IMG/VR virus record: IMGVR_UViG_3300033146_003955
Span: 64,001 to 128,000 of that record
Source of the DNA: a virus
Strand: one strand, 5' to 3'
Length of the DNA: 64,000 nt
The translations under genes and the position numbers were made by a program. Position 1 is the first letter of the stretch. Each line of letters starts with the position of its first letter. A model generated the notes under the pieces. It saw nothing but the letters and a program-made list of their open reading frames with translations, was not told the DNA's origin and did not search any database. Of the stretch, positions 1 through 19,443 are shown piece after piece.

Positions 1-2567
1 TAACTGAACAACAATTAGACGAACGAATTATTAAAGATTTTTTTAGAGGAGCTACTGCGAAATTCACAGGGCTCCTTAAATCTATATCGGGTGTTTTGAC
101 AAAAAGCATTGCTTCTATAGTTGGTCCAGTAAAACGCATTTTTACAAAAAGAATAGGAAAAACAGAATATTTTGTTTATGAACAAAAAGGACCTAAAGGT
201 CGTATGTATGGTTTCCTATATCCTGATGCTGTTAAAAAAGCAGTAACTGGTACTAAAGGTGGAGCTAATCAAACTACATTAGCAAAAGCTTATTTTAAAG
301 GTCAAAACCCAAGAAAACCAGAACAAATAGTTGTAGCTTTCGATAAAAGATTTAAAGGTAATGTAACCAAATCAAATACAAATGTTAAAGCTGCTCCTGT
401 GAAACAAGATTTTGCAGATATACCTGAAAGTTTCTTAGGCAAAATGTCTGGTGAAATATTAAATGAGGCACCTTTATCAAAAAGTTTCCTGCATAGACAA
501 AGTTCTGAGTATGATAGAGATCGTGCTGAAACAATGGCTATGAAAGGGACTTTCCAATCTGTTGATGTACCTGTGCCTAATGACATAGATATGGCAGATA
601 ATGTTGAATTGCAAGAGTATTTGAATACTGCAAAAGTTGGACCGGAAGCCGTCGGGGATATTTTAAGTGAATTCCTCACTGCTCTCGCCTTCCGTGCTGA
701 TAAGGATTCAGATGCCATCCCTTCTCTTCTTATTATGGGTTTCCCTGGTGGTGGTAAAACTGCTATCATTAAAGCCTTTGCTAAGAAGAGATTTAAAATT
801 CATATCCTTGAAATTGCATCAATCTACAAAGAAATTCTAGGTGGTTTCCCAACTATCGAAGATGGTGGTGGTGCTCAAGCTCTTGAGGATAGAATAAAGA
901 AATTAAAAGCAGATCCTGATAGAACAATTGCGTCTTGGGACATTGACGGTGATGATTCAGGTTCTAAAGTAAGAATGAAAGCTGCTGATATATTCCCTGA
1001 AGAAGACGGTCAAATACATGTATTCTTTTTAGATGAATATAATAGAGATGCAGAAAAAATGGCTGCATCAATGAACCTTATGTTATCTGGTTCTATTGGT
1101 AATCAATACCAACTTCCTCTTAAAACTATTGTAGTTGCAGCAGGTAATTTAGGTATAGATATTGATAAAGTAGACGTTCAAAGATTGGATAACGCTACTT
1201 TCGACAGGTTCAATGCGTCGATCATGTTAAAGAAAGATATGATTGCTGGTGCTGAATATGCTGGTGCTCAAACTGATTATAGTAGTAAAGGTATATCAAG
1301 AAGTATTGAGAAGAATATTGAAGATACGGCTTTCGTCCCTATTGAAAAACAAGCTGAGTATAATATAAAGATGGGTGGTGCTATATCGTCTATGGATATA
1401 TTTATTGGTCAAATGACACAAAAATATGGTGCTGAGTTAAACGGTGCTGGTTGGCAAGACGAATTAGGTCTTAATCCACTTGAATCAGAGTATGTAGGTG
1501 ATGAAGATGAACGTGATCCTGATGATCAATATCTTCTTACTGGACGTAAATTAGAAACTATAAATAGACGTGTTAAAAATAGAGTTGTAAGAGATTGGAT
1601 TGAAGCTAAAGAAGGAATGTCTGAACTAGCAGATCCAAAAGAAATAACTGGTGCATGGAATAAGGGTAGTGAAAAATATAAAAATTTTACTAAGCCTGAA
1701 GACTGGGAGAAAGCTTGGAAAGATAAAAAACAAACTTATATTTCTCGTGGCATTCCGTCTCCAGCAGCATTATATATGCATATTATGCAATGGCATTTTA
1801 CGTACCTTCCAACTGTACTTAAACAAACATTAGGTGGTAATCCTGGTGAATTGATTTCAAAAATTAGATCTGCTGCTGAAGTGGCGATTCAAGAAGCAAA
1901 CCAAGTTACACCTTATGATATTATATTTGGTTATGCTGCTAAACGTATTTTATACGGACATACTATGAAGATCGGTAAAAAACAGCAACAGATTGAAGCT
2001 GAAGAATTTATGTCTCGAGTCAAAATGATGCCAACTCTTGGTGATACTGTTATGCGTTCTCTAGCTGATGCTATCAACGAAAATAGCACAGAGGCTAAAA
2101 TTTCTAAAATGATTAAAAAAGTAACTGGTCACACATGGGCTGAGGTTAAGGCTGATTTAGCTGATAGTTCTAAACATGCAAAAGCTGGTGGTAAACCGAT
2201 AACAATTCCAGATGCTAAAAATTTTGTTGCATATAATTTGCATCTCTTTATTTCAAATATAGATTTAAGTTTAGACAGAATTGCTATTCTTGTTACAAGA
2301 ATGAGAGACTTCGGTTTCACTATTGAAGAAAATGGCGGAAAGAATAAGGTTGTTTCTGGCAAGAGTGATGAAAAAATAAATAAAGAAGCAAAAAATACAA
2401 TTGGTTATATATACGGTGCTCTTGTACAGAAAAATAAAAACTTTCAAGAATCTCGTATTATTTCAGCTAATGCCAATTTTGATGAATTGGATAAACTTGA
2501 TAATGAGAAGAATGAAAATATAATTGATGATGGAATGAACGCGCTATTCGAAAAATTAAAGGGATAA
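1..2567 (+). CDS. Large MoxR-type AAA+ ATPase (module 1), 5' end probably outside window
   Basis: Walker A GFPGGGKT, Walker B FFLDEYNR, AAGN sensor, FDRF Arg finger; frame is open from nt 3 (TEQQLDERII...), upstream of the called TTG at 96. Confidence 0.85.
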   Translation, partial: TEQQLDERIIKDFFRGATAKFTGLLKSISGVLTKSIASIVGPVKRIFTKRIGKTEYFVYEQKGPKGRMYGFLYPDAVKKAVTGTKGGANQTTLAKAYFKGQNPRKPEQIVVAFDKRFKGNVTKSNTNVKAAPVKQDFADIPESFLGKMSGEILNEAPLSKSFLHRQSSEYDRDRAETMAMKGTFQSVDVPVPNDIDMADNVELQEYLNTAKVGPEAVGDILSEFLTALAFRADKDSDAIPSLLIMGFPGGGKTAIIKAFAKKRFKIHILEIASIYKEILGGFPTIEDGGGAQALEDRIKKLKADPDRTIASWDIDGDDSGSKVRMKAADIFPEEDGQIHVFFLDEYNRDAEKMAASMNLMLSGSIGNQYQLPLKTIVVAAGNLGIDIDKVDVQRLDNATFDRFNASIMLKKDMIAGAEYAGAQTDYSSKGISRSIEKNIEDTAFVPIEKQAEYNIKMGGAISSMDIFIGQMTQKYGAELNGAGWQDELGLNPLESEYVGDEDERDPDDQYLLTGRKLETINRRVKNRVVRDWIEAKEGMSELADPKEITGAWNKGSEKYKNFTKPEDWEKAWKDKKQTYISRGIPSPAALYMHIMQWHFTYLPTVLKQTLGGNPGELISKIRSAAEVAIQEANQVTPYDIIFGYAAKRILYGHTMKIGKKQQQIEAEEFMSRVKMMPTLGDTVMRSLADAINENSTEAKISKMIKKVTGHTWAEVKADLADSSKHAKAGGKPITIPDAKNFVAYNLHLFISNIDLSLDRIAILVTRMRDFGFTIEENGGKNKVVSGKSDEKINKEAKNTIGYIYGALVQKNKNFQESRIISANANFDELDKLDNEKNENIIDDGMNALFEKLKG

Positions 2568-2571
2568 ATAA

Positions 2572-3396
2572 ATGAATATATTGAATGAAATGCAAATTGA
2601 GTTTAATGATATTCAAGAAAATATTCTAAATGAAAGTTATTCTAGATATCCTCCTAAAAAGGTATCTAGAATTCTTTCAGCTATATTAAAAGTGGATGCT
2701 TTCTTATATTCTTTATACTCTCAACATACATTCTGGGATGATTCCCTACAAAAACCTACAGCTGGTGTAGCTCCACACCCAAATAATACTCATATAGTAT
2801 TTCACTATAATGCAGCTTGGTTTAATTCTTTAACTTCAGCCCAATTAATGTTTCTTCTTCTTCATGAGATTGGACATATTTTGAGAGAACATCATGCTCG
2901 TTCTAAATATCAAGGCGAAACAAACGGTAAAATGTATCATAAGATTGCAAACATTGCAATGGATACTTGGATTAATCAAGATATTCTTGATGGTAAAATG
3001 GGTCAATTTACTGTAAAAGCCCCTATGACAGGATTTTCTTTTAAAGATTATGGCGAAGAATGTTCCTCCGTAGAGGAATGGGTTAATGAATCTGTAGAAA
3101 AAGCAACAGGTACTAATCACAATTATAAATATGATGGGCCTCATTCTACAGAACCTTTATACGATTGGATCGTTAAGATATTTGACAAACATGGTTTGTT
3201 AACACCTCCACCTCCTCCAGAAGGTGCACCACCTAAAATTGGCGATATTGTTAGAGGACCTGGGAAGGTATTTGGTAAAATCGTAGCTATAGATGAGAAG
3301 ACTAAGAAGGTCACGAAAATTACACCAATGACTAAAGCAGAAGCATATCAAGAAGTAAGAATACGAGATGGTGTTATGAAACCTCCTAAAAAATAA
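2572..3396 (+). CDS. Stand-alone DUF2201_N-like HExxH metallopeptidase domain with C-terminal SH3/KOW-like segment
   Basis: PTAGV, LLHEIGHILREH, NIAMDTWIN and TEPLYDWI match the N-half of 11610..13211; no VWA domain. Confidence 0.8.
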   Translation: MNILNEMQIEFNDIQENILNESYSRYPPKKVSRILSAILKVDAFLYSLYSQHTFWDDSLQKPTAGVAPHPNNTHIVFHYNAAWFNSLTSAQLMFLLLHEIGHILREHHARSKYQGETNGKMYHKIANIAMDTWINQDILDGKMGQFTVKAPMTGFSFKDYGEECSSVEEWVNESVEKATGTNHNYKYDGPHSTEPLYDWIVKIFDKHGLLTPPPPPEGAPPKIGDIVRGPGKVFGKIVAIDEKTKKVTKITPMTKAEAYQEVRIRDGVMKPPKK

Positions 3397-3399
3397 GGA

Positions 3400-3906
3400 A
3401 TGATTATGGATTTAAACAAATTTTGTGAAAATTTAATTGAAGAAAATGATAATATATTTGAAGAAATAAACGATGGAACTGTTGATTGGGATTTTGATGA
3501 TGTTACAATCCTTAAAAGTTCTGGCGGTAAAAAAGGCGATCCACCGCCTCCACCACCAGATGGTGAAGATCCACCTCCTCCTCCTCCACCTCCACCAGGT
3601 AACGAAGAGGATATAGATCCTCCAGATCCAGAAGATGGCGAAGATGGCGAAGATGGAGAACCTGGTGAAAGCAAAGAAACAGACACAGATGAAATTACTA
3701 TTGGCAAGATAGTTCAAGATATGAAGACTGGAAAATATGGTAGAGTTACTGGTATTTATGGTGATAAAGTAGAAATGGAACCAGTATCAGATGCTGATTT
3801 AAAAAGCGATGGATACAAAACATTCGTAAAACGTAATAGCATAATTAGTAATGACGATTTTAATGATGCAGTAAATTGGGGGCCAGGCAGTGAGCAGTAT
3901 ACTTAA
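3400..3906 (+). CDS. Pro/acidic-linker protein with C-terminal SH3/KOW-like segment
   Basis: Poly-Pro and EDG repeats; ITIGKIVQDMKTGKYGRVTGI resembles KIGDIVRGPGKVFGKIVAI of the previous gene; AAGGA upstream. Confidence 0.7.
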   Translation: MIMDLNKFCENLIEENDNIFEEINDGTVDWDFDDVTILKSSGGKKGDPPPPPPDGEDPPPPPPPPPGNEEDIDPPDPEDGEDGEDGEPGESKETDTDEITIGKIVQDMKTGKYGRVTGIYGDKVEMEPVSDADLKSDGYKTFVKRNSIISNDDFNDAVNWGPGSEQYT

Positions 3907-5491
3907 AAAATTATTTGAAGAAGTAGACGATATTCAACTTGTAACAGAGATGACTGCTAATATTGGTGATATTCGTACTGTTACTAAAATTAAGTCCAAT
4001 AAAGACAAAGACAAAGACAAAGACAAAGATGACGATAAAGGTGACAGCCAAAATGGTGATGGTCAACCTGGAGATGGTCAACCTGGTGATGGTCAACCTG
4101 GTGATGGTCAGCCTGGTGATGGTCAACCTGGAGATGGTCAACCTGGAGATGGTCAGCCTGGTGATGGTCAACCTGGAGATGGTCAGCCTGGTGATGGTCA
4201 ACCTGGTGATGGTCAGCCTGGTGATGGTCAACCTGGTGATGGTCAGCCTGGAGAAGGGCAACCTGGTGGCGGAAAAACAACGACTGATATAGGTGATGAT
4301 GATCCTAATGGCCCAAAAATAATGGATGACCACGAAGGTATGGATAAAGGTAAAGGCGTTGGTTCATTCAAAAAGATATTTGATAAAGTATATAAAACAG
4401 CAAAAGAAGTCGAAAAGCAAGCTGGTAAATCAGGCGGATATGGAGATAATTCAGGTAGTTTAATGCGTCAAGTTGAAGGTTTCCTTGAACCACATTTTGA
4501 TGTTGATGGCATAATGAAGAAATTGAATAAATTTAAGCGTCTCTCTGCTGAAGAATATTCAACAGTAAGAGCTGAAACTTTCCAAGCTTCAGCGTTCAAC
4601 CCAGTAAATCAACACTCCCCTGGTTCTAAGTCAAGAATGAATCAGCCTGGTATGGCTAAAATCGGTAAAGATGTAAAACCCTTTAAAAGGTCTGCAATTC
4701 TCTTTTTCTCTATAGATACTTCTGGTTCTATTGGACCACAAGATTTTGCAGTTATTAAGGGTTATTTAAGAGAGATTGTAAATAGATTTGCTAAAACAAT
4801 CCCTGTTAAAAATAATAAAGGTAGAGTTGTTGGTCATATGGGTGGAGAAGTTTATCTCTTAGAGTGGGATACTGAACTTAAAACTCCTATAAGAAAATGG
4901 ACTAAGGTTGGTAAAAATGGAACTGTTGCCGCTATCACTAATCCAAATTTAAAGAAGGGTAAGTATGACGCTGCTGGTGGAAGAGACGCATATAAAGAAG
5001 AATTCAAAGTAAGAGGTGGCGGTGGTACTAATATTAATAGATTTTTTAGTGATATTGACGTTGCTTTCCATAGAGTTGAAAACGGGAAAGAATATTTTGA
5101 CTTAGATGATTCTGCTGATTACATTGCAACTGATGCAGATAAATTTGAATCTCAAGAGGATTTAAAAACAGAATTTAAAAAAGACCATCTTAAGGCTGAA
5201 TTGAAGAATAATAATAAGAAATGGAAAAATCCTAAAAAACAAAAAGAATTAGATTTAAACGATGGTATATTAAATTTTACCGAGAATCATGTTTCTGGTG
5301 ATCCAACTCCATTTTTAATAGTTTATACTGATGGTTGTTTTAGTCCAGCTAAATATCAAAATTCTGAACTTTTTAAGAATAATCCTGGTAATATATTATA
5401 CATTCTTACGATGCCTGATATGGTGGATAATATATCGCCCAAAAATGTTGTTTTTCATGACTTACAAAAAGAACACGCAAGACCGAGATAA
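3890..5491 (+). CDS. VWA (DUF2201-like) protein with GDGQP repeat linker
   Basis: MIDAS IDTSGS, EWDT, GGGGT, YTDG; DDH motif after the linker, like DVH in 11610..13211. Confidence 0.85.
   Translation: MSSILKKLFEEVDDIQLVTEMTANIGDIRTVTKIKSNKDKDKDKDKDDDKGDSQNGDGQPGDGQPGDGQPGDGQPGDGQPGDGQPGDGQPGDGQPGDGQPGDGQPGDGQPGDGQPGDGQPGEGQPGGGKTTTDIGDDDPNGPKIMDDHEGMDKGKGVGSFKKIFDKVYKTAKEVEKQAGKSGGYGDNSGSLMRQVEGFLEPHFDVDGIMKKLNKFKRLSAEEYSTVRAETFQASAFNPVNQHSPGSKSRMNQPGMAKIGKDVKPFKRSAILFFSIDTSGSIGPQDFAVIKGYLREIVNRFAKTIPVKNNKGRVVGHMGGEVYLLEWDTELKTPIRKWTKVGKNGTVAAITNPNLKKGKYDAAGGRDAYKEEFKVRGGGGTNINRFFSDIDVAFHRVENGKEYFDLDDSADYIATDADKFESQEDLKTEFKKDHLKAELKNNNKKWKNPKKQKELDLNDGILNFTENHVSGDPTPFLIVYTDGCFSPAKYQNSELFKNNPGNILYILTMPDMVDNISPKNVVFHDLQKEHARPR
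4055..4264 (+). repeat. 15-nt coding tandem repeat (13x GDGQP + GEGQP)
   Basis: ggwgatggtcarcct units, synonymous variation except in the last unit. Confidence 0.95.
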
Positions 5492-5493
5492 TA

Positions 5494-5522
5494 AAAAAAG
5501 AGGTTGAAAAACCTCTTTTTTT
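5494..5522. terminator. Intrinsic terminator, probably bidirectional
   Basis: A-run, gaggtt-gaaa-aacctc, T-run. Confidence 0.85.
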
Positions 5523-5524
5523 AT

Positions 5525-5538: not shown

Positions 5539-5856
5539 ATGAATATTATAGATAAAAACACATTATGGACTAAATATTTCCTAACTGAAGACAGGCATAA
5601 CTTAACAAGTCTTAGACAATTTGTAATACATGAAGTTGATGTTATGGACCTCACAAAAAAAGTATCAGTAGATAAAAAAAAGAAGTTTCTACGCTATATG
5701 TTGAAATCACTTTCAAAACGTGATATAGTTAAAACATATACAGAGGATGTAATATTATCCCCTTTTAGAAAAACATTTTTACAATATTCAAAACATGATA
5801 TAATAGATAAAATTATAAAATCAACAACAATATGGGATGAAAAATGGCATATATAA
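5539..5856 (+). CDS. Hypothetical protein
   Basis: 105-aa ORF directly after GCATA motif. Confidence 0.65.
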   Translation: MNIIDKNTLWTKYFLTEDRHNLTSLRQFVIHEVDVMDLTKKVSVDKKKKFLRYMLKSLSKRDIVKTYTEDVILSPFRKTFLQYSKHDIIDKIIKSTTIWDEKWHI

Positions 5857-6227
5857 AAAAAGCTGATCAACTTAAAATACTCGTTGTTGAAGATATGTCT
5901 TCAAGAATTCAATTTTTTAGAAATAGGTTTAAAGGGCATGATCTCTATTTCTTTGATAACGCTACTGATTCCATTGATGCTCTTAAGCTTATGACTGATA
6001 AACCTTGGGATATTGTCTTCCTAGATCATGATTTGGGTGGAAAAGTATTTGTTCCCTCATCAGATCCAAATACAGGTTATGTTGTGGCTGAATATATTAG
6101 GGATAATAATATTAAAATTAATCAAATATTTATACATTCTATGAATCCTGCTGGAAGTCAGAATATTAAATCTGTTCTCCCTCAAGCTAAAATTATACCA
6201 TTTACTCTTTTAAAAACAAGTATATGA
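5844..6227 (+). CDS. Cyclic-phosphate-processing receiver-like (cREC) domain protein
   Basis: VVED..R, FLDHDLG, TGYVVAEYI, IHSMNPAG motifs. Confidence 0.75.
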   Translation: MAYIKKADQLKILVVEDMSSRIQFFRNRFKGHDLYFFDNATDSIDALKLMTDKPWDIVFLDHDLGGKVFVPSSDPNTGYVVAEYIRDNNIKINQIFIHSMNPAGSQNIKSVLPQAKIIPFTLLKTSI

Positions 6228-8129: not shown

Positions 8130-9020
8130 ATGAATGTACAAAGTCTATCTGTAGTAGTTCCTGGTGGATGTCCTAATAGTTGTTTATATTGTGTTTCTAA
8201 AACACATAAAGAAATTAAATATAAAGATACAATATCACCATGTGTTAGGCGAATACAAAATAAAGCTTCTTTCACAAATTATGATATGGAACAATATATC
8301 AATAGAATGGAGTTTGCTAGAGATAACGGTTGTAATACTGTAATTCTAACTGGTGAAGGTGAACCAGTCTGGAATAAGAAATTTCTCAAAGCTTTCGGAC
8401 AATGGAATAAGGCTCTTGATAAACCTTTCAGATGGATTGAGATTCAAACTTCTGGTATTGGTCTTGATGGTGAGACACTCTCACTTCTTAAAAAAGTTGG
8501 TGTTAACACAATCTCTCTCTCAATCTCATCTTTTAATGATGAAAAGAATAACGAATATAATGGTATCAAACCCGAGAATCAATTTAATATAGCTGAAAGA
8601 TGTAACCAAATTAAGAAGGAAGGTTTTAATCTAAGACTTTCTATTAATGCAACTGATGCATTTAATAGGTGGCTGCCGGTAGAAATATTTAATACAGCTA
8701 GTATTTTAGGAGCTGATCAATTGACATTCCGTGTTCTTTACGATTCTGGAAATCCAGAGCATGAAGTTGATATCTGGATTAATGAGCATAGAGTTAGCAA
8801 CCAGTTACAAAAGAATTTTATTACGTATGTTCAGGAAAATGGTAATAAATTAGAACAGCTTCCTTTTGGCCCTTTTAAATATTCGGTTGATGGCGTATCT
8901 ACTGTTATCGACGACGACTGTATGAGCAAGGAACTTAAAGATACTATTAAGTACTTTATCTTAAGACCTAATGGGAAATTATATACTCGTTGGGATGATA
9001 CGGGGAGTTTGTGGTTTTAA
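8130..9020 (+). CDS. Radical SAM protein
   Basis: CPNSCLYC (CxxxCxxC), ILTGEGEP, IEIQTSG. Confidence 0.9.
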   Translation: MNVQSLSVVVPGGCPNSCLYCVSKTHKEIKYKDTISPCVRRIQNKASFTNYDMEQYINRMEFARDNGCNTVILTGEGEPVWNKKFLKAFGQWNKALDKPFRWIEIQTSGIGLDGETLSLLKKVGVNTISLSISSFNDEKNNEYNGIKPENQFNIAERCNQIKKEGFNLRLSINATDAFNRWLPVEIFNTASILGADQLTFRVLYDSGNPEHEVDIWINEHRVSNQLQKNFITYVQENGNKLEQLPFGPFKYSVDGVSTVIDDDCMSKELKDTIKYFILRPNGKLYTRWDDTGSLWF

Positions 9021-10421: not shown

Positions 10422-10450
10422 ATGTATAAAGATTTGATAGGAGATGTTTG

Positions 10451-11542
10451 ATGTCAACAATTAAAGAGATGAAGAAAAAATTACGTTATGTTTTAAAAGA
10501 AGGAACAATTCAGCCAGTAACTCCCTTTATCTGGGGAAAACCTGGAATTGGGAAATCTCAGTCTGTAAAACAAATTGCTGATGAGATGGGAATTATGTTT
10601 ATTGACCTTAGACTTTCACAGTTGGAGAGCGCTGATCTTAGAGGTATTCCTGTACCTGATATGGAACAAGGTATATCTAAATGGATGCCACCAGAATTTC
10701 TTCCTTTTAAAGGCATTAAAAAATTTGAAGGTACTTCTGGTATAATTCTTCTTGATGAGTTTAATAGAGCACGACCCGATGTTCTTCAGGCAGCATTCCA
10801 GCTTGTGTTAGATAGACAGGTTGGTATTCATGAAATTATGGATTCATGGTTTATTGTAGCTGCTGGTAACCTTGGAGATGAGGATAGAACAGATGTTATC
10901 GAGATGGATTCTGCTCTTAAGAATAGATTTATTCACTTTAGTGTAGATGTTGAGTTGGATTCTTGGTTACGTTGGGCAAACAAAACCAAAATTAATTCTG
11001 ATATTATAACTTTTCTAACTTCAAAACCTGCTTATCTGTATCATACGGCTAAAGAAGAAGATAATATATTTGTTACTCCTCGTTCATGGGAGAAGTTTTC
11101 TGATATTCTTGCTCAGAATCCGGATGTTGATCCTATGGAAATTACTGCTATTCTTGGTCCTGATATTATCAATGGAGCTGCTGGTCACTTCATGAAATTT
11201 CTTGAATCTAAAGAGATTGTTTCTGGTAAAGATGTTATTACTAAATATCATCAGGATGCGGTTAAGAAGAAAATCAAAGCTATGCAGAGGGATCAGATTT
11301 ATGCTCTAGACGGCGATATTGTAGACTATATTCTTAAGAGCAAGAAAACTACAGATATTCATTTAGAGAACCTACACAATTTCGCTAAAGAGAATCTTGA
11401 GAAAGATATCTATATTGCATTCATGAGAAATCTTGCTCAAAAATGCGTTAATGAGGAACATAACTTCATTGATAAGTACCTCAAAAAGTACATCAAGGAA
11501 TCAAAAGAGATTATTCAAATCTTTAAAAATAAATTAAGCTAA
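10451..11542 (+). CDS. MoxR-type AAA+ ATPase (module 2)
   Basis: GKPGIGKS, DLRL, LLDEFNR, AAGN, LKNRF, TPRSW. Confidence 0.9.
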   Translation: MSTIKEMKKKLRYVLKEGTIQPVTPFIWGKPGIGKSQSVKQIADEMGIMFIDLRLSQLESADLRGIPVPDMEQGISKWMPPEFLPFKGIKKFEGTSGIILLDEFNRARPDVLQAAFQLVLDRQVGIHEIMDSWFIVAAGNLGDEDRTDVIEMDSALKNRFIHFSVDVELDSWLRWANKTKINSDIITFLTSKPAYLYHTAKEEDNIFVTPRSWEKFSDILAQNPDVDPMEITAILGPDIINGAAGHFMKFLESKEIVSGKDVITKYHQDAVKKKIKAMQRDQIYALDGDIVDYILKSKKTTDIHLENLHNFAKENLEKDIYIAFMRNLAQKCVNEEHNFIDKYLKKYIKESKEIIQIFKNKLS

Positions 11543-11552
11543 TCACTAGCTT

Positions 11553-11580
11553 GCTCCCTCTTTGAGGGAGTTTTTTTTTT
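11553..11580 (+). terminator. Intrinsic terminator
   Basis: gctccctc-ttt-gagggagt followed by a long T-run. Confidence 0.85.
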
Positions 11581-11624
11581 GAAAATTTCGGTTTCTCATG
11601 CATAGTTAATTGCATAATAAGGAG

Positions 11625-13211
11625 ATGATGATGGCTAAAGAAACAAAAGATGTAAGTACTTCAAAAGTTAGTTTAACTAATGAGCAAAAGGAACAGGCTA
11701 GGTCTGCTCTTGTGTCTGCTGGTGTAGTTGCTCCTCGACTAAAGAAAGTAAGGATTCCAAAAAGATTTGAAGATATATCCCTCCGATGGGTAAAACAAGC
11801 ACCATTTTTCTCAGAATTTATGCTTCGTTTTCACTTCTTCAAAACTAAAGATATCCCAACAGCTGGTGTTAATGTTATGAGAGGAAATCTCAATTTCTAC
11901 TTCAACCCTGAATTTATTGATGGTGGTGGAGAGAGACCTGACATCGGTGATGATGGACATCCTGTAATAATTAAAAATAAAGCTGGAGACCCAGAGCTTG
12001 ATGCTCAAGGTAATGTTCAGGTTAAAATGGTTCCTCGTGAAGCATTAACCAATTCAGAACTTGAAGGCCTTCTTATACATGAGATTTATCACATTATCCG
12101 CCTCCACCACGAAAGAAGTCTTGAGGATCACCAGCTCTTTAACGTAGCTGCTGATATGCTCATTAACGATGATATCTCTACTCTCAAAATAAATAATAGA
12201 GGTATGGATCTTCCTGCTGGTGGTGTCTTTTATAAAATGGCAATTGATGAAGGTTATACCGGTGAGAAAGTGACCGAAGAACTTTACATTTGGTTACAAG
12301 ATGTAAGACAGAAATATGAAGATATGATGCAGAAACTTATTCAGCAACAAATGGGTGGTTCTGGCGGTGAAGGATCAGGTAGTCAAGGTCAACAGGAATG
12401 TTCTGCGTGTGGTGGTGACGGTCAGGAAAAAGATGAGAATGGTAATCCTACTGGTGAAACTTGTGAGAAGTGTGGTGGTTCTGGTAAAGAGTCAGGTCAA
12501 AGTGGTCAAGGTAAGAAAAACTCCCTCTTCGACGTACTCTTCGGCTCAAATATTGATGTTCATGAAATCATGGGTCAGAGTGATGAACTTTCAGATGCAA
12601 CTATTCAGGAAGTATTAGACTCAGCAAAAATACGTGGCTGGGGCTCTATGGCAGGAGATGCTGTCTCAAAAATTCAGGAATTGATGACTCCAGCAAAAAT
12701 TCCTTGGAGACAGGTTTTAAGAAAATCACTTTCTCCTCTTATTTATGATTATGGACCACATTTTGAAAATACATGGTCTCGTAGAAACAGAAGAGGACTT
12801 CCTCTTCCAGGTCTTAGACGTCTTACTAATCGTCTTGTTATTGCAATTGATACTTCTGGTTCTATCGGTGGTAATGAACTTGAACAATTCTTCGCTCAAA
12901 TCGAGAAGATTGTCAAAGACTTTTCGCAGTTGATAGTTATTCAATGGGATACTAAAATCGCAGATGTCTCGCTCGCTTATAGAAAGGGTGATTGGAAGAA
13001 CATTGAAGTTAAAGGTCGTGGTGGAACACATGTACAATGTGTATTCGACTGGATGAGCGATAACGGATATAAAAAATATCCACTCATAAACTTCACAGAT
13101 GGCTACTTTGATTATGGCTTTGATAACCATGGCATTAAAACTATTTGGTGTGTAACTGAAGCAGATTCAACTGTACCCCGTGGCAAAAATATATTTATTG
13201 ATGTAAATTAA
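11625..13211 (+). CDS. DUF2201-type HExxH metallopeptidase + VWA fusion with DnaJ-type Zn finger in the linker
   Basis: HEIYH, NVAAD, CSACGGDG/CEKCGGSG, PWRQVL, IDTSGS, QWDT, GRGGT, FTDG; AAGGAG SD before ATG 11625-11631. Confidence 0.9.
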   Translation: MMMAKETKDVSTSKVSLTNEQKEQARSALVSAGVVAPRLKKVRIPKRFEDISLRWVKQAPFFSEFMLRFHFFKTKDIPTAGVNVMRGNLNFYFNPEFIDGGGERPDIGDDGHPVIIKNKAGDPELDAQGNVQVKMVPREALTNSELEGLLIHEIYHIIRLHHERSLEDHQLFNVAADMLINDDISTLKINNRGMDLPAGGVFYKMAIDEGYTGEKVTEELYIWLQDVRQKYEDMMQKLIQQQMGGSGGEGSGSQGQQECSACGGDGQEKDENGNPTGETCEKCGGSGKESGQSGQGKKNSLFDVLFGSNIDVHEIMGQSDELSDATIQEVLDSAKIRGWGSMAGDAVSKIQELMTPAKIPWRQVLRKSLSPLIYDYGPHFENTWSRRNRRGLPLPGLRRLTNRLVIAIDTSGSIGGNELEQFFAQIEKIVKDFSQLIVIQWDTKIADVSLAYRKGDWKNIEVKGRGGTHVQCVFDWMSDNGYKKYPLINFTDGYFDYGFDNHGIKTIWCVTEADSTVPRGKNIFIDVN

Positions 13212-13220
13212 ACTATATTT

Positions 13221-13255
13221 TCTTCCGTCTATAAAGATAATAAGTAGACGGAGGA
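13221..13255 (+). promoter_or_regulatory. AAGATAA motif in the loop of an RBS-occluding hairpin
   Basis: 11-bp stem tcttccgtcta/tagacggagga covers GGAGG; AAGATAA at 13234-13240. Confidence 0.75.
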
Positions 13256-13262
13256 TATTTTT

Positions 13263-13805
13263 ATGGAAATAACAAATTATTTTGATAAGTTTAATAATTC
13301 AGATAAAGAATTAATAATAGAAGAAAGGTATTTTAATGAAGATACCAGATTTGTAATGTTGGGTTTAAAAGGTTTAATAGATACATATAATACAATTCCA
13401 TTCTACGATAATATTAAGAAATTTTTAGCTTTAGAAGAGCGTTTAGTTTTAGTTTTAGATATGAATTCAATAAGTTATATGTCTTCTACTGGAATTGGGA
13501 TATTTCTTCAAATAGATAAAGATTGCAAAGCTGGGAATATAAAGTTATATTTAATGGGCATACGAAAGAATGTCGACGAAGTATTTTCCCTTCTGGGTTT
13601 TAAAATGTTTTTTAATTATATAACAGAGTTGAATGACATTAAAGAGGAAAAAATTATTAGATCAATCTTCCCTCAGAAAATAAAATGCCCAAACTGCGGC
13701 ATAACTTTAAAAATATCAAAAATTGGTGCTTTTAAATGTACTGGCTGTTTAAAAACATTTAGAATAGTAGAAAAAAATAATAATGAAATAGGAGTTAATA
13801 AATGA
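13263..13805 (+). CDS. STAS anti-anti-sigma factor with C-terminal Zn ribbon (spirochaete type)
   Basis: GLIDTYN, YMSSTGIG, EVFSLLGF, FPQKIKCPNC..LK..K.GAFKCTGC. Confidence 0.85.
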   Translation: MEITNYFDKFNNSDKELIIEERYFNEDTRFVMLGLKGLIDTYNTIPFYDNIKKFLALEERLVLVLDMNSISYMSSTGIGIFLQIDKDCKAGNIKLYLMGIRKNVDEVFSLLGFKMFFNYITELNDIKEEKIIRSIFPQKIKCPNCGITLKISKIGAFKCTGCLKTFRIVEKNNNEIGVNK

Positions 13806-14011
13806 AGGTTGGTGTAGCATTTGACAATCTTGCGTCTTTCTTTAACGATGACGATGAAAAAGAAAGCGCTTCAATCCCTGCAGAAGTTTTTAGAGATGAA
13901 GAAGGAAAAGTTATAGAAGTACGCATATATAATCCAGAGTACGAAGAAATAATTGTTGTTGGGAGAAATAAAAATGTTGAAGCACTCTCGGTCGAAGAAT
14001 ATTCTAAGTAA
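13802..14011 (+). CDS. Hypothetical protein
   Basis: AGGAG SD, ATGA overlap. Confidence 0.6.
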   Translation: MKVGVAFDNLASFFNDDDEKESASIPAEVFRDEEGKVIEVRIYNPEYEEIIVVGRNKNVEALSVEEYSK

Positions 14012-14648
14012 ATTATTTTTAATATTCATACTTTTTCTGTGTTTTATTACGCTAAGTGTTTTATTAATATCAGTAAATTCATCTTTAGTTATTACTAAAG
14101 AATCAAATATGATTGAATTATATACACCAATAGTAGATGATTCAACTTTTTTGATGAGATGGGATATAAACTCCCATGCTATGGAGAATCCAGAAAATGT
14201 AATCCTCTTCTACTCTGAGTATACTAATAATGAAATAATCACATCAGCTATTATAAATAATGCAATAGAACACAATGTTCCCCTAAATATAGCTTTCTCT
14301 GTAGCTTGGGCTGAAAGTAAATTTAACCCTGATGCATATAATAATAATGGTTCAACAACAGATAGAGGTCTTTTCCAATTAAATGATCTTTATAGAAATT
14401 GGACTAAAAATGAATATTATAATATAGAACTAAATGCTCACGAAGGAACTAGATATTTGAGCGAAATGATTACTCTTAATAAGGGTGATATTATTTATGC
14501 CCTCTACTGTTACAACGCAGGTCCTACTCGCGTTAGAGGGGAGGGCATTATCCCTAATATGACTAAAAAGTATGTAGATAAGGTTTTAGAGTATGAAGAC
14601 ATGTTAAACCAAGATTTTAACAAATGGGTTAATGAGGAGCATAGTTAA
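13974..14648 (+). CDS. Membrane-anchored lytic transglycosylase (SLT domain)
   Basis: N-terminal TM; AWAES.FNP, GLFQL, ALYCYNAG, TKKYV. Confidence 0.9.
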   Translation: MLKHSRSKNILSKLFLIFILFLCFITLSVLLISVNSSLVITKESNMIELYTPIVDDSTFLMRWDINSHAMENPENVILFYSEYTNNEIITSAIINNAIEHNVPLNIAFSVAWAESKFNPDAYNNNGSTTDRGLFQLNDLYRNWTKNEYYNIELNAHEGTRYLSEMITLNKGDIIYALYCYNAGPTRVRGEGIIPNMTKKYVDKVLEYEDMLNQDFNKWVNEEHS

Positions 14649-14904
14649 ATATATGATGTGGTTAATATTAATTACTATTATTTTAATAGTTTTCAATATA
14701 ATAAATTTGATTTATGTTCTTAAGAAAAATAATAAAAAAAAAGAAGCACTTAACAGATATAAAGTAAAATATAAATTAGTTGGCGACAATGCTGTTGCTG
14801 CAATGAAAATACACAAACAATTTATAAAAGAATACAATGAATTGGGCGGAAATTATCAAATTGACGTCATAGATAAAACAAATAATATATTAGGAAGGAG
14901 CTAA
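14632..14904 (+). CDS. Small single-TM protein
   Basis: Hydrophobic N-terminus then basic stretch. Confidence 0.55.
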   Translation: MRSIVKYMMWLILITIILIVFNIINLIYVLKKNNKKKEALNRYKVKYKLVGDNAVAAMKIHKQFIKEYNELGGNYQIDVIDKTNNILGRS

Positions 14905-14905
14905 G

Positions 14906-15118
14906 ATGGAAGACGGTTACAGAAAAGTTGAACGAGAAAATGGATTTTCAGAAATAACAATCGGTGACAGAATTAGACTTTCAGATGTAGAAAAAGATGG
15001 TATTACCTTACTTGAAGATGTTCCTCAAAAGGGTGATAAAATTTATTTAGTAAATACTCTCCCAGTTAAAAATAAGGATGGAGTTTTAGCCGTAGAATGT
15101 GATACTGTTGAAGAATGA
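14906..15118 (+). CDS. Hypothetical protein
   Basis: AAGGAG SD. Confidence 0.65.
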   Translation: MEDGYRKVERENGFSEITIGDRIRLSDVEKDGITLLEDVPQKGDKIYLVNTLPVKNKDGVLAVECDTVEE

Positions 15119-15357
15119 ACGTTGGAGAAGTTTGGCTTAAAAGAAGACAAAGGCCTGAAAGAGAACGATTTTTTGTTATGAAGAAAAATAACAATTCTGG
15201 TTTTCGAGGACTTATGATGGCTCGTCAATCTTTATATGAAAATGTTTTTTTGAGTAATGATAGTATAAAAGGTTTTGAAGAAAAAAATAAACTTCTAACT
15301 GATGATGAAGTTGCTAAATATATATTATTGGGTGATTTGAATCCAGCAATACTATAG
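15115..15357 (+). CDS. Hypothetical protein with C-terminal EVAKYILLG tag
   Basis: ATGA overlap. Confidence 0.6.
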   Translation: MNVGEVWLKRRQRPERERFFVMKKNNNSGFRGLMMARQSLYENVFLSNDSIKGFEEKNKLLTDDEVAKYILLGDLNPAIL

Positions 15358-15365
15358 GGGATAAT

Positions 15366-15995
15366 ATGAATTTGGAGAAGTGGAAAAATCGTTTGATAGT
15401 GTTCGAAGGTGGAGATCAAAGTGGAAAATCTTCGGTAGCTAAAGCACTCACAAAGTATCTTAATAATAAAGGTGTAGAAACAGTTTTTACCTTCCAGCCT
15501 GGTGATATTAATTGGGGTACTAATGCTGCAATTACTCGCTCTTGGTGTAAAGATAAAAGACATAATTTTCATCCTCTTGCAAACTTTTTCGCATTTCAGC
15601 TCGATCGAGTAGAACAAACTTCGAAAATTATTGTCCCTGCTCTCGCAGCTGGGAAAACAGTTATATCTGATAGATGGAATTACTCTACTATAGCATATCA
15701 AATGTATGGTAAACAATTAATAGAAAAATATAATATGCCAGAAGATGTATTAAATTGGCTTCTTACTACAGCAATAACATCTAAAGAACCCGACCATGTA
15801 TTTTATTTCCCGGAGAAATTGAATGTTGGTAGAGAGAATAACAAAGACGACTTATTTGATAACGCCGGTTCTTCATTCATAAATAGAGTTCACAATGCAT
15901 ATGAAAGTTTGTATGGGAAAGCAGATAATTGGTTTCGTATAACTCCCGGCTCCTCAGTCGAAGAGACATTAGCAAAAGTATTGGAGTGTCTATAA
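15366..15995 (+). CDS. tmk: Thymidylate kinase
   Basis: VFEGGDQSGKSS P-loop, DR..Q, VISDRW.YST.AYQ. Confidence 0.9.
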   Translation: MNLEKWKNRLIVFEGGDQSGKSSVAKALTKYLNNKGVETVFTFQPGDINWGTNAAITRSWCKDKRHNFHPLANFFAFQLDRVEQTSKIIVPALAAGKTVISDRWNYSTIAYQMYGKQLIEKYNMPEDVLNWLLTTAITSKEPDHVFYFPEKLNVGRENNKDDLFDNAGSSFINRVHNAYESLYGKADNWFRITPGSSVEETLAKVLECL

Positions 15996-15996
15996 T

Positions 15997-16260
15997 ATGG
16001 AACCGGATGATTTAATGAAAGTAGGTTTTAAGTGGGATGATAATGATAAAAATCTTGGTGTCTATACAGTAATATCTGATTGGGCAAAACAAATAAAAGG
16101 TGGTGTAAGTAATGTTGCTACTCTTGTACAAAAAGATGGAAAATTGTATTTGAGGACAAAAGATAAAGATGCTGAATTAAATACTAATAATCCTACTAAA
16201 ATTGGCGAGTTAATAGTAGCTGAATATGCTAAGCAGGTATTAGATAACAATGCAACATAA
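15997..16260 (+). CDS. Hypothetical protein
   Basis: Coupled ORF ending EYAKQVL. Confidence 0.6.
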   Translation: MEPDDLMKVGFKWDDNDKNLGVYTVISDWAKQIKGGVSNVATLVQKDGKLYLRTKDKDAELNTNNPTKIGELIVAEYAKQVLDNNAT

Positions 16261-16564
16261 CTTTTGTGACCAAGAAGATTGCCTTCTCCATCCCACCTAT
16301 ATTAAAAAAGAAGAGGAAAGAGCAAAACGGGAAGCTCAAGCAAAAGGACATCTTGTTGCTATAGAAGATGGTTCTCAATGGGCGCCGGCTTCTTATGACC
16401 ATAGTATTTTTTGGGATAGTTCATGTATTAGCGTGCAAGCAGTGAGAATTAAAACCTCAACAGTAGATATCCCTGTCGAATGTACAATATGCTCACATTT
16501 TAAAAAGTTGGACATGAAAGAAATATTAATAATAGAAGAAGCAAAAAAGGCATTGAATGACTGA
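16250..16564 (+). CDS. Cys/His-containing hypothetical protein
   Basis: CxxxxC..H, CTIC; ends EEAKKAL. Confidence 0.6.
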   Translation: MQHNFCDQEDCLLHPTYIKKEEERAKREAQAKGHLVAIEDGSQWAPASYDHSIFWDSSCISVQAVRIKTSTVDIPVECTICSHFKKLDMKEILIIEEAKKALND

Positions 16565-16898
16565 AATAGATGAAGCTAAATTTCTTCTCACCCACACTAA
16601 ATGTATAAAATACTACGATAACGGTAATATACAATCTACACATTATATGTTTGATAATTTAATAGATGGTGAAGAGAAGATATGGCGAGAAGACGGTAAA
16701 CTCTTAATCCAATCTAATTGGGTTAAAGGAAAGAAAGAAGGTAAATTTGAACAGTGGCATGCTAACGGCATGTTGAGCGAAATATGTTATTTTAAAAATA
16801 ATAAGAAGAATGGTGAAAGCAAAAAATGGTATTATAACGGATTGTTAAAAAAACATACACTATATAGACATGGAGAAGTGCTTGAAACCTACAAATGA
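16557..16898 (+). CDS. MORN-variant repeat protein with EAKFLL tag
   Basis: YYDNG, WHANG, WYYNG repeats. Confidence 0.8.
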   Translation: MTEIDEAKFLLTHTKCIKYYDNGNIQSTHYMFDNLIDGEEKIWREDGKLLIQSNWVKGKKEGKFEQWHANGMLSEICYFKNNKKNGESKKWYYNGLLKKHTLYRHGEVLETYK

Positions 16899-17313
16899 AG
16901 AAGCTAAATTTTTATTATTACATGATTTACAAAAGCAATATTACACTAACGGTAGAATAAAAGCAAAGTATTATATGTTAGATGATAAAATGGACGGAGA
17001 ATACAAAAGTTGGCATCAAAATGGTAATATGAGTATTTGCTGTTTTTATAAAAAAGGTGTTTTACATGGTGATTATACAGATTGGTATCAAAACGGTCAA
17101 TTATGGGAGAAACGCTTCTATATAGATAACAAATTAAATGGTCAAATAAAAGTCTTCTACGAAGACGGCCAGCAGCAATATACAGTTTATTATAAAGACG
17201 ATTTGCGTGAGGGTGAATATAAAGAATGGGATGAAGAAGGGTTACTCATTACACATTATATATATGAAAACAATGAAGTTGTAAAAGATTATCCTCTTAA
17301 AAAGCATATTTAG
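16870..17313 (+). CDS. MORN-variant repeat protein with EAKFLL tag
   Basis: WHQNG, WYQNGQ, GEYKEW repeats. Confidence 0.8.
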   Translation: MEKCLKPTNEEAKFLLLHDLQKQYYTNGRIKAKYYMLDDKMDGEYKSWHQNGNMSICCFYKKGVLHGDYTDWYQNGQLWEKRFYIDNKLNGQIKVFYEDGQQQYTVYYKDDLREGEYKEWDEEGLLITHYIYENNEVVKDYPLKKHI

Positions 17314-17339
17314 TATTAATTAAAAATGTTGGGGAAAAT

Positions 17340-17843
17340 ATGATAAAAGATCAGTATGAGAAAAATTATAAGAAGTATATAAATAATACACAATTTGATG
17401 ATTTTATGAGTTCAACAACAACGGAGTTAACAGCAACAACGGAGTTAACAGCAACAACGGAGTTAACAGCAACAACGGAGTTAACAGCAACAACAAGTGG
17501 TGGAATATGGAGTATTAATCCTTTGACTACAGGCGATGGTTGGTACTCAGATGGGACAGCTACAAGTCTACCTATAATAGGTGATAATACTTATAGCGGC
17601 GGTATGATAAATATACCGCTCTTAGCCGGAAATACTACTTATGAATATCCTGCACATCGTACTCCAGGGACTGAAGAATGGCCAATAGTACCTGATGCCC
17701 TAGGTGTTGTATATATCGAGGGTAATGAAATTAAAATAAGAATGGCAGATGGGAAAACAATTGTTATAGGCCGTTTAGATGATGGAGAAGATTTCGTACC
17801 TATTGAAGTTGTTGCAGCTAAGAAAAAATTAATAGATGAGTAA
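17340..17843 (+). CDS. Hypothetical protein with TTELTA repeat
   Basis: GCATA at 17304; ends AAKKKLI. Confidence 0.7.
   Translation: MIKDQYEKNYKKYINNTQFDDFMSSTTTELTATTELTATTELTATTELTATTSGGIWSINPLTTGDGWYSDGTATSLPIIGDNTYSGGMINIPLLAGNTTYEYPAHRTPGTEEWPIVPDALGVVYIEGNEIKIRMADGKTIVIGRLDDGEDFVPIEVVAAKKKLIDE
17416..17494 (+). repeat. Perfect 18-nt tandem repeat x4
   Basis: caacaacggagttaacag. Confidence 0.95.
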
Positions 17844-19116
17844 AAAATTAACTACTGAAGAATTCATACAAAAAGCTAAACAAGTACATGGTGATAAGTA
17901 TGATTATTCTTTAGTTGATTATAAAGGCGCCAAGATTAAAGTTAAAATAATATGTCCTAAACATGGTATATTTGAACAAATACCCGATAACCATGTAGTA
18001 GGTAGAGGATGTAATAAATGCGGTAATATTAATAGTTCTAATAAGCAGTCTTTAACTATTAAAAAATTTATACAAAAAGCTAAGCAAGTGCATGGCAATA
18101 AATATGATTATTCTTTAGTTGATTATAAAAATATGAATATTAAAGTTAAAATAATATGTCCAGAACATGGAATTTTTAAACAATTACCTAGTGCACACAT
18201 AGCCAGTCAAGGATGCTTTAGATGTAATGGCGGGGTTAAATATACGACTAAAGAATTTACACAAAAAGCTAAACAAGTACATGGTGATAAATATGATTAT
18301 TCTTTAGTTGATTATAAAAATATGAATATTAAAGTTAAAATAATATGTCCAGAACATGGAATTTTTAAACAATTACCTAGTGCACATATAGCTGGACGAC
18401 AATGCTCTAAGTGTTCAAATAGACTTAGGTATACAACAGAAGAATTTACACAAAAAGCTAAACAAGTACATGGTGATAAATATGATTATTCTTTAGTTGA
18501 TTATAAAAATAATAAAATTAAAGTTAAAATAATATGTCCTGAACATGGAATTTTTAAACAAAAGCCTATAGATCACATACTTGGCGGAAATTGTTCAAAA
18601 TGTTCGCAAGTATATCAATATACGACTGAAGAATTTATAGATAAAGCTAAAGAAGTACATGATGATAAATATAATTACTCTTTAACAAATTATATAAATA
18701 ATAAAACAAAAGTTGATATAATATGTCCAGAGCATGGTGTGTTTAAACAAAAACCAGCAAATCATTTATATGGGCAAGGCTGCCCTATATGTAATGAAAG
18801 CAAAGGCGAAAAAGCTGTAGCTAAGTATTTAGATGATAATAATATAAAATATATAAGAGAATATAGATTTAATGATTGTAAAGACAAACGTGTTCTTCCA
18901 TTTGACTTTTATATTAAAAATAAAAATGTGTTAATAGAATTTGATGGAGGTCAACATAAAAAAGCTATAGAATATTTTGGGGGTAAAGAAGGACTCGAGA
19001 ATATAAAACGACGAGATATAATCAAAACACAATATGCTAAAAGGCATAATATAAAATTAATAAGAATAAATAATATAAATGAAATTTTAGATAAATTGAA
19101 GCATATTTTAATATAA
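17836..19116 (+). mobile_element. Homing endonuclease-like gene (5 DUF723/CapR-like Zn repeats + Vsr-like nuclease)
   Basis: TEEFIQKAKQVHGDKYDYS..IICPEHG.F.Q repeats; SKGE, LPFDFY, IEFDGGQH. Confidence 0.85.
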
Positions 19117-19133
19117 ATATATAGGAGAAAAAC

Positions 19134-19397
19134 ATGGCAGAAGAAGCAGTTTATATTAATCAGATGAGTGACGCAGACATAAAAATTATCCAAACAACTT
19201 ACAATGCGATAAGAACACTCGATGAAGAGAAAAAAAGTATTGGAGAGGACATTAAAGAAGAGAAGGCCAAATGTATTAAAGATACAGGCATCAAGCCTAA
19301 AGATCTCAATAACATCTTCAAACTTTTAAAACTTCAGGAAGATGGATTTGATCCTAAGAAGTATGATAATGTTATTGACAAGATTCATGATATGTAA
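19134..19397 (+). CDS. GapR/T4 DsbA-like small dsDNA-binding protein
   Basis: IRTLDEEKKSIGEDIKE...GIKPKDLNNIFKL pattern; AGGAG SD; GCATA at 19101. Confidence 0.65.
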   Translation: MAEEAVYINQMSDADIKIIQTTYNAIRTLDEEKKSIGEDIKEEKAKCIKDTGIKPKDLNNIFKLLKLQEDGFDPKKYDNVIDKIHDM

Positions 19398-19417
19398 AAG
19401 TAATACTTAAAAATTTA

Positions 19418-19443
19418 AGCGCCTAAAAATGGGCGCTTTTTTT
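19418..19443 (+). terminator. Intrinsic terminator
   Basis: aagcgcct-aaaat-gggcgctt followed by T-run. Confidence 0.85.

Follow-up and report, generated by a model that had tools for sequence, protein, structure and literature searches.

We analysed a stretch of 64,000 bases, referred to below as the window, that corresponds to bases 64001-128000 of the 158,812-base IMG/VR record IMGVR_UViG_3300033146_003955, a record of an uncultured large phage with a G+C content of approximately 31%. The 5′ end of the window is occupied, on the plus strand, by an operon that encodes a putative AAA+ ATPase of the MoxR type, a predicted zincin metallopeptidase, a proline-rich and acidic linker protein, and a protein with a VWA-like domain and a metal ion-dependent adhesion site (MIDAS), all of which open with a short amphipathic leader. 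The preliminary description of this DNA regarded the system as a machine of four genes. An open reading frame (ORF) check confirmed these four at the positions reported, but the unit comprises five: a small protein of 146 residues, encoded just 5′ of the window and directly before the ATPase gene (L001:992-1432), belongs to it and carries the best leader. The order is thus small protein, ATPase, peptidase, linker, and VWA protein.

Anatomy of the operon

The AAA+ ATPase is 870 residues long (window 1-2567; its start lies 46 nucleotides before the window, L001:1455-4067). A MoxR/AAA_5-like core spans approximately residues 240-420 (window 672-1214), and the extensions on either side, about 230 residues at the N-terminus and about 450 at the C-terminus, have no match. 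The protein hence exceeds the compact size of MoxR proteins (~300-370 residues), and the operon includes a gene for a VWA partner. Searching 5.8 billion proteins yielded 18 full-length homologues, in which the Walker A motif (GFPGGGKT, residues 262-269), the Walker B motif (FFLDEYNRD, residues 357-365, of the MoxR-like DE-x-NR form), N398, and R418 are all invariant. In single-sequence Pfam searches, the scores stayed under the curated cut-offs (AAA, 16.6 bits against 21.2; AAA_3, 13 bits against 27), while PHROG 1297, described as “ATPase”, was matched with E = 2.5e-12. A PDB sequence profile search recovered the P-loop region of clamp loaders and Lon only, and the AlphaFold2 (AF2) model, with a predicted local distance difference test (pLDDT) score of 60, returned only generic AAA+ folds in Foldseek. 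The ATPase thus appears to be a very divergent relative of the MoxR type, which Pfam misses and PHROG 1297 alone matches. Scans of IMG/VR with the ATPase protein and with the 18-sequence alignment found no relative.

The peptidase that follows (274 residues, window 2572-3396) is assigned as a zincin through its match to Pfam DUF2201_N (PF13203; 35.4 bits against a cut-off of 23.2, E = 1.2e-8). It consists of a leader (residues 1-21, positions 2572-2634), a HEIGHxxxxH motif (2863-2892), a Pro-rich hinge, and a small C-terminal beta-barrel. H98, E99, H102, and H107 are invariant across the alignment, and so are L19 and E21. The AF2 model has a pLDDT of 79.8, with 42-49 in the leader helix; its fold matches are weak (Z ≤ 5.1, Foldseek E ≥ 0.1) and all are zincins, namely BlaR1, Ste24, ArdC, and selecase.

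The linker protein (166 residues, window 3406-3906) lies in an ORF that opens at 3400, and translation probably begins at the second ATG (3406; MDLNK...), which an AAGGA box precedes by 7 nucleotides. Its leader (3406-3441) is followed by a VDWDF..VTIL motif, a poly-Pro/acidic tract (~3523-3669), and a small C-terminal beta domain that, in an alignment of eight linker sequences, resembles the C-terminal domain of the peptidase. It had zero matches in Pfam or PHROG. Within the leader, a 21-nucleotide tandem duplication (window 3426-3466, plus strand) doubles an N-hydrophobic-hydrophobic-E-E motif (NLIEE / NIFEE). The peptidase and linker genes share a reading frame, with a single TAA between them, and stop-codon read-through could therefore join the two products; given that this stop is not a UAG and that the linker has its own Shine-Dalgarno box and start, we rejected this as the main route.

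The last gene encodes a protein of 533 residues (window 3890-5491), identified as a VWA/MIDAS protein by its invariant MIDAS and by profile alignment with hhalign (see below). Its parts are a leader (3890-3928), a low-complexity Gly/Gln/Pro region, a helical segment, and the VWA-like domain. The MIDAS is composed of D276-T-S-G-S280 (4715-4729), T380 (5027-5029), and D481 (5330-5332), and is complete: D276, S278, S280, T380, and D481 are invariant in eight sequences. Single-sequence Pfam scores were under the cut-off for both VWA (PF00092, 17.7 bits) and DUF2201 (PF09967, 12.9 bits), and a PDB profile search with this protein recovered the integrin alpha-M I-domain (E = 0.012). The low-complexity region includes a 15-nucleotide tandem repeat of 14.3 copies (4054-4268, plus strand; Tandem Repeats Finder score 346) that encodes (GDGQP)n, and the VWA proteins of relatives have other Gly/Gln/Pro/Ser-rich tracts at this position.

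Judged from these alignments, the catalytic motifs are intact throughout the operon: Walker A and B in the ATPase, HExxH...H in the peptidase, and the complete MIDAS in the VWA protein. A complex prediction for the peptidase, the VWA domain, and the linker scored 0.46, which a control with the VWA replaced equalled; it gives no verdict and is not used as evidence. The five operon proteins had zero matches in the defence-system and NCBIfam libraries, and the 146-residue protein also had no usable match in the Atlas.

The operon is delimited by putative expression signals. A promoter-like box, TAAAGATATAA, precedes the gene of the 146-residue protein (L001:947-957); on each of the seven contigs where this gene is present, the box is conserved as TAAAGATA(T/A)A approximately 40 nucleotides before the start codon. 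This is a box of the AAGATAA type, which the preliminary description had anticipated upstream of the operon. The ATPase/peptidase, peptidase/linker, and linker/VWA junctions each have their own Shine-Dalgarno-like box and start codon, and a terminator scan placed a hairpin with a T-run, resembling an intrinsic terminator, immediately behind the stop codon of the VWA gene (window 5491-5524, plus strand), which marks the end of the operon. The conserved box, the Shine-Dalgarno box of each gene, and the terminator together make the operon a defined unit.

The AAGATAA-type box is also found before large tail/baseplate genes (record positions 106435, 120469, and 147591). Across the record, AAGATAA lies at most 60 nucleotides upstream of 21 starts, against approximately 5 expected, as estimated from motif density; examples are at record positions 58, 48924, 89947, and 129087 and at window positions 42401 and 60039. 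Two spacing classes were seen. One, of about 19-32 nucleotides, comprises large tail genes and several genes without an assigned function; in the other, represented by four cases, the box lies 5-6 nucleotides before the ATG, an arrangement that may yield leaderless mRNAs.

A second, canonical copy of the module

Five kilobases (kb) downstream of the tagged operon, the same genome encodes a canonical version of the module. It consists of a 364-residue MoxR-like AAA+ protein (window 10448-11542, plus strand; PHROG 1297, E = 5e-80) and a 533-residue protein in which Pfam identifies DUF2201_N and DUF2201 fused in one chain (11610-13211, plus strand). This copy is unsplit and leaderless, and its N-termini score low with the leader matrix described below, in agreement with the earlier observation that the leader clusters are absent from the second module.

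All parts of the canonical pair have a recognisable relative in the tagged operon. The peptidase aligns with residues 145-236 of the fused protein (30% identity, BLASTP E = 2e-10), the VWA family aligns with positions 303-488 of the fused family (hhalign probability 96.7%, E = 3.3e-10), and the two ATPases match each other with a BLASTP E of 5e-7. At 870 against 364 residues, the tagged ATPase is 2.4-fold longer, which bears out the statement that it is over twice as long as its paralog. For the linker, no counterpart could be detected in the fused protein. The claim that the fused HExxH+VWA partner was split exactly at its linker therefore holds with regard to the split, which distributes it over three genes, while “exactly” is only approximate. 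Taken together, the similarities show that the tagged operon is a divergent, split, and enlarged paralog of the canonical MoxR / zincin-VWA pair. Among relatives, identity is 30-51% for the tagged module and 66-79% for the untagged one, and the tagged module thus evolves much faster. The canonical pair itself is distributed among N4-like phages, Asteriusvirus-type coliphages of ~350 kb, and staphylococcal jumbo phages.

The split is conserved in related contigs

The preliminary description proposed looking for the same split in related phages, and it was indeed found on further contigs. The order small ORF, ATPase, peptidase, linker, and VWA recurs on eight related contigs from seven samples, with ATPase identities of 37-51%; two of the eight, L003 and L004, encode an identical ATPase protein and come from two sequencing runs. 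In six of the contigs the peptidase, linker, and VWA protein are separate genes, and the reading frames and overlaps at their junctions vary. L003 and L004 instead encode peptidase and linker as a single protein of 430 residues, in which the stretch equivalent to the linker leader, now internal, has lost its L-x-E end. An assembly error as the origin of the split is ruled out by its recurrence on seven of eight related contigs, one of them a near-duplicate, with different junction geometries. Since it is shared by related contigs whose junctions differ, the split is both real and old.

One relative departs from this arrangement. In L005 (13970-15642), the VWA gene is present as two overlapping pieces, one of 194 residues that includes the leader and one of 381 residues, with the break in a low-complexity tract; either a frameshift associated with the repeat or a fault of assembly may account for this.

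A shared N-terminal leader

All five protein families of the operon open with an amphipathic leader of about 12 residues that follows the pattern M-[DN]-[LF]-x-x-[FL]-L-x-x-L-x-E, or a form of it shifted by one residue. Clusters of hydrophobic-x-E had previously been described as opening all four proteins. The N-termini are indeed enriched, although the ILNE of the ATPase that was listed among them is situated at residues 164-167 and is not N-terminal. Three or more hydrophobic-x-E occurrences within the first 32 residues were observed in 15 of the 207 ORFs of the record, a set that includes all five operon genes. When orthologues were compared with control families taken from the same loci, the mean number of [LI]xE in the first 25 residues was 1.5-2.25 in the five module families and 0-1.25 in the 13 controls, a complete separation (Mann-Whitney p = 0.0008).

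The conserved positions of the leaders stand out from their surroundings. In the ATPase, L21-D-E23 (window 15-23, plus strand) forms a candidate processing site after the leader, and L21 and E23 are invariant among the 18 homologues within an otherwise variable N-terminus. The internal ILNE (window 444-455, plus strand) lies in a predicted disordered stretch (residues 147-177, pLDDT < 50), in which E167 is invariant in the same homologues. In the upstream 146-residue protein, L10 and E12 are invariant, and the six closer orthologues retain another L-x-E at about residue 25. The invariant L-x-E sites of the ATPase, the peptidase, and the upstream protein thus fall in otherwise variable or disordered segments, and in the AF2 models the leaders appear as detached, low-confidence helices.

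We scored leaders with a position matrix built by leaving out one family at a time, using the other N-termini of the record as background (mean approximately -13, standard deviation 8.5). Held-out leaders mostly scored between -5 and +12, with outliers down to -16, and most were 1-3 standard deviations over the other N-termini. By comparison, 22 further ORFs of one relative all scored below +0.5, against a 95th percentile of 0.8 for the record N-termini.

The leader also occurs outside the operon, in three unrelated small protein families encoded 30-80 kb away. An AAGATAA box precedes the gene of a 92-residue protein without an assigned function (window 32482-32760, plus strand) that opens with the leader MNVDKFFNELNE; five homologues of 51-58% identity retain this leader, and five of the six sequences exceed the 95th percentile of the record N-termini when scored with a matrix trained on operon families only. 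A 118-residue protein, likewise without an assigned function, was identified from a homologue alignment and matrix scores (window 61432-61788, minus strand) and begins with MKLDMFDFQLNE; in eight homologues, with identity down to 35%, the residue at position 12 is E without exception, and that at position 10 is either L or I. The third is a protein of 103 residues (record 143936-144247, minus strand), whose homologues likewise retain the leader. A matrix trained on the operon proteins only was used to score 16 sequences of these three families, and 14 of them exceeded the 95th percentile. The leader is thus portable, opening at least eight families that are otherwise unrelated.

Other frames in the record touch on the leader. 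At window 22857-22976 (plus strand), a frame of 39 codons that starts MDFNINELNEGLNEGLNE... and includes a tandem 12-nucleotide duplication overlaps, in a different frame, the beginning of a 108-residue ORF at 22906; a frameshifted leader and an upstream small ORF are both conceivable. A very acidic protein of 203 residues with a long Glu run (window 19490-20101, plus strand) starts with MIDPSIIEEAYTELNE and gave no family match; it looks like a scaffold or internal protein. Finally, an ORF of 3,500 residues with zero Pfam matches (L016:405-10907, plus strand; record 10904-21406) is preceded by a 117-residue ORF with a weak leader-like start (MIFDGVLNSINE).

We consider the anatomy of the system settled, including the operon, the paralogy, the conserved split, the intact active sites, and the portable leader.

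A candidate signal for head packaging

Based on the sequence patterns and on analogy, we tentatively interpret the leader as a capsid-targeting signal and the operon products as proteins packaged in the phage head, an interpretation to which we assign somewhat less than an even chance. Head packaging is favoured since it best explains why every polypeptide has a tag of its own, why unrelated proteins are tagged, why L-x-E sites are redundant, and why the canonical paralog is untagged. In such a mechanism, the leader would bind the assembling prohead core and bring each subunit into the head, similarly to the internal proteins of phage T4, and the prohead protease would then remove it after the Glu. 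After maturation, the subunits would be carried in the virion and delivered with the DNA into the next host. Once inside, the ATPase, fuelled by the ATP of the host, and the MIDAS adaptor would take hold of a target protein complex at an acidic residue and remodel it, while the zincin would cut it; one candidate target is a component of the host's defence or of its envelope. A related task in the cytoplasm would fall to the untagged paralog. In the full scenario, a AAA+ motor, a MIDAS adaptor, a zincin, and two accessory proteins would be loaded into the head one by one through a T4-like tag and trimmed by the protease of the head; injection along with the DNA would then let the machine take apart a defence or envelope complex of the host at the very start of infection. 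We regard this scenario as possible but on the doubtful side.

Several observations weigh against packaging. The T4-type prohead protease (PF03420), T4-type capsid (PF07068), T4-type portal (PF07230), and terminase nuclease (PF17289) were undetected in the 159-kb record, in which no scaffold gene was found either, and approximately 150 kb read across the related loci included no recognisable head genes. With no head gene in the record or in these loci, neither a protease that cuts at L/I-x-E nor a leader-bearing head protein is known for this clade. Neither the ATPase nor the record had a DNA or protein match among 50,697 cultured-phage records. An ATPase cannot work inside a capsid, and packaging would thus imply that it acts only after ejection or during assembly. 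Acidic amphipathic N-terminal helices occur in ordinary enzymes as well, such as the phage DNA ligase, which starts MLNDLYNLVKELN, and the leader is made of AT-rich codons, which a genome of 31% GC favours. Lastly, the AAGATAA-type box that precedes the operon also precedes genes without a structural annotation, including those of a STAS protein and a Csx15-like protein.

With respect to the head genes, the record is a fragment without the head module, and their absence from it is therefore uninformative either way. This also applies to the prohead protease, which the preliminary description had suggested finding: PF03420 is not in the 159-kb record, which lacks T4-type capsid, T4-type portal, and terminase genes too. 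Scanning 30 of the larger ORFs in the record against Pfam and PHROG likewise found no head genes, and a 10-kb walk on the 83-kb contig of a relative encountered only nucleotide-metabolism and small genes. In an Atlas search, a 378-residue candidate beside a tagged gene resembled a tail-fibre protein; all scores were below 0.9, and this is a lead only.

An alternative to packaging is that the leader acts as a docking or localisation tag, which joins the subunits and the small accessory proteins at a hub or cellular site other than the capsid, with the machine working, like its untagged paralog, in the cytoplasm as a chaperone and processing system for virion assembly or as an anti-defence device. 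One tag on each of the split pieces would suit re-association as well as addressing, and the ATP that the ATPase needs is in line with such a location, as is the role put forward in the literature for the canonical pair, namely chaperoning of assembly in the cytoplasm combined with peptidolytic processing (PMC7824862). Similarly, the MoxR ATPase of phage Bas54 is required to overcome a predicted defence system, with packaging unmentioned (PMC13716836). Docking does not readily account for a leader that is also found on three unrelated small families far from the operon, nor for a tag on the ATPase itself, and a docking helix would have no need for the invariant L-x-E that occur 8-14 residues downstream of it and at the disordered residue 167. 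We consider this alternative unlikely.

The leaders may instead be propeptides or degrons, cut by the zincin of the operon or by a host protease to time activation or to limit lifetime, without any packaging. The conserved L-x-E resemble cleavage sites and the operon does include a protease gene with an intact HExxH...H, but no zincin of the DUF2201_N family has a known Glu-P1 specificity. Several of the minimal zincins to which the peptidase model bears a weak resemblance are zymogens (abylysin and jannalysin); for simple activation, however, the shared 12-residue helix before the site would be superfluous, and nothing obvious connects the three small tagged families with the operon. Such a role is less likely still.

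That the N-termini resemble one another without a common function, through a preference for AT-rich codons at gene starts and the general tendency of N-terminal helices towards amphipathicity, is very improbable: every leader residue has AT-rich codons, the N-terminus of the DNA ligase is similar though part of the enzyme fold, and hydrophobic-x-E is slightly denser at the N-termini of the record than in interiors (0.027 against 0.020 per residue), but other genes under equal codon pressure score approximately 2-3 standard deviations lower, position-specific conservation persists down to 35% identity, and five adjacent genes all rank within the top 15 of 207.

The reading of the operon products as virion cargo is therefore attractive but unproven. 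Within a single genome, the two copies of the module differ cleanly, one being untagged, fused, and slow-evolving and the other tagged, split, and fast-evolving, and this contrast points to two different places of action. The leader further provides a sequence handle with which to list proteins that may be packaged or co-localised in this clade of uncultured and very large phages, with contigs of up to 478 kb. If it is indeed a capsid address, the targeting principle of T4 would reach far past the T4-like phages and extend to large enzymatic cargo, and a new tag for loading proteins into phage heads may become available. The operon would then also encode the first multi-subunit motor known as capsid cargo, and would suggest that gene splitting can serve packaging or ejection through the tail channel.

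Genomic setting

The record includes many homing endonucleases as well as tail-fibre, tape-measure-like, and baseplate genes, and no tRNA genes were found in the 64-kb window. One relative sits on a contig of 478 kb. The genes placed between and after the two MoxR modules encode a receiver-domain protein (cREC_REC, window 5844-6227), a radical SAM enzyme (8130-9020), and a STAS anti-sigma-antagonist-like protein with a zinc ribbon (13263-13805), and they are kept in most relatives. In one relative, a gene for an IS605 OrfB / Cas12f-like TnpB is inserted between the VWA and receiver-domain genes (L009:6256-7527, minus strand).

Two further genes of the record deserve mention. A weak relative of the T4 DNA end protector gp2 (window 35355-35978, plus strand; PHROG 429, E = 1.3e-5) heads the baseplate module and matches T4 gp2 across a GRIY...NLHY motif (BLASTP E = 0.002). 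Near the end of the record, a gene encodes a eukaryotic-type topoisomerase IB of 575 residues (L014:16072-17799, minus strand; record 156072-157799), whose Topoisom_I_N, Topoisom_I, and Topo_C_assoc domains score far over their cut-offs; such an enzyme is out of the ordinary for a phage.

Comparison with known systems

The combination of an AAA+ partner, an acidic Pro-rich linker, and a VWA domain with a MIDAS is familiar from the BchD/ChlD subunits of magnesium chelatase and from cobaltochelatase CobT. Unlike the operon products, these are single polypeptides without a peptidase, and they insert metals into tetrapyrroles.

The closest counterpart is the pair of a MoxR ATPase and a metallopeptidase-vWA protein of jumbo phages (group 2.2), for which Iyer et al. 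(2021) proposed a virion-assembly chaperone role (PMC7824862). This pair (PHROG 1297 and PHROG 1314), to which the second module of the window corresponds, and the operon share an AAA_5/MoxR-like core with DE-x-NR, a DUF2201_N HExxH zincin, and a DUF2201 VWA domain with a MIDAS, encoded in adjacent genes. The operon differs in that its peptidase-VWA part is spread over three genes, with an extra Pro/acidic protein of 166 residues and an ATPase of 870 residues, and in that it has a fifth small gene, a leader on every product, and a much faster divergence.

An association of MoxR and VWA proteins with virus particles is also documented in Acidianus two-tailed virus (ATV), whose virion has the MoxR ATPase p618 among its major components; p618 binds p892, a VWA protein (PMC4124505). 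As may be the case for the operon, a MoxR ATPase and its VWA partner are present in the particle or act on it. ATV is, however, an archaeal spindle virus without the peptidase, with leaders unreported and with extracellular tail growth, and we compared the two systems by description only. The statement of the preliminary description that no such system had been described was accordingly too broad, as both the canonical pair (PMC7824862) and the virion MoxR/VWA proteins of ATV (PMC4124505) are published, while for the split, leader-tagged form we found no published description.

Packaged enzymes with removable N-termini are known from giant phages, which cut after Glu at several redundant sites (PMC9026906, PMC5694885). 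In giant phages of the phiKZ/SPN3US type, many of the enzymes packaged in the head (for example, subunits of the virion RNA polymerase) have, as the operon products would, N-terminal propeptides with several Glu-P1 sites. The propeptides of these ejection proteins are, in contrast, mostly longer than 100 residues, with S, A, or G at P3 rather than Leu or Ile, and a MoxR/VWA cargo is unreported.

The leader itself is best compared with the capsid targeting sequence of T4, which is found on IPI, IPII, IPIII, and Alt and cleaved by gp21. In T4, head proteins carry propeptides of 10-20 residues at their N-termini, commonly with redundant sites (PMC9026906, PMC5694885), and in IPIII, residues 4 and 7 direct targeting while residues 8 and 10 direct cleavage after Glu (PMC9026906). 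IPII and IPIII start with MKTYQEFIAE-A, and IPI with MKTFKEF...ITE-A. Both the T4 peptide and the leader are short N-terminal amphipathic peptides on unrelated proteins, with two hydrophobic residues three positions apart, an I/L-x-E followed by a small residue, extra sites downstream, and fast-evolving cargo; the ATPase, peptidase, upstream, and 118-residue families have an invariant L-x-E at the end of the leader. The two have no sequence homology, their lengths are 12 residues in the leader against 10 in T4, and the leader is known from genes alone. A T4-type targeting signal has recently been sufficient by itself to recognise a packaged restriction inhibitor (PMC13716836). While the cargo of T4 consists of small inhibitors or an ADP-ribosyltransferase, the cargo addressed by the leader described here would be a multi-subunit, ATP-driven enzyme system.

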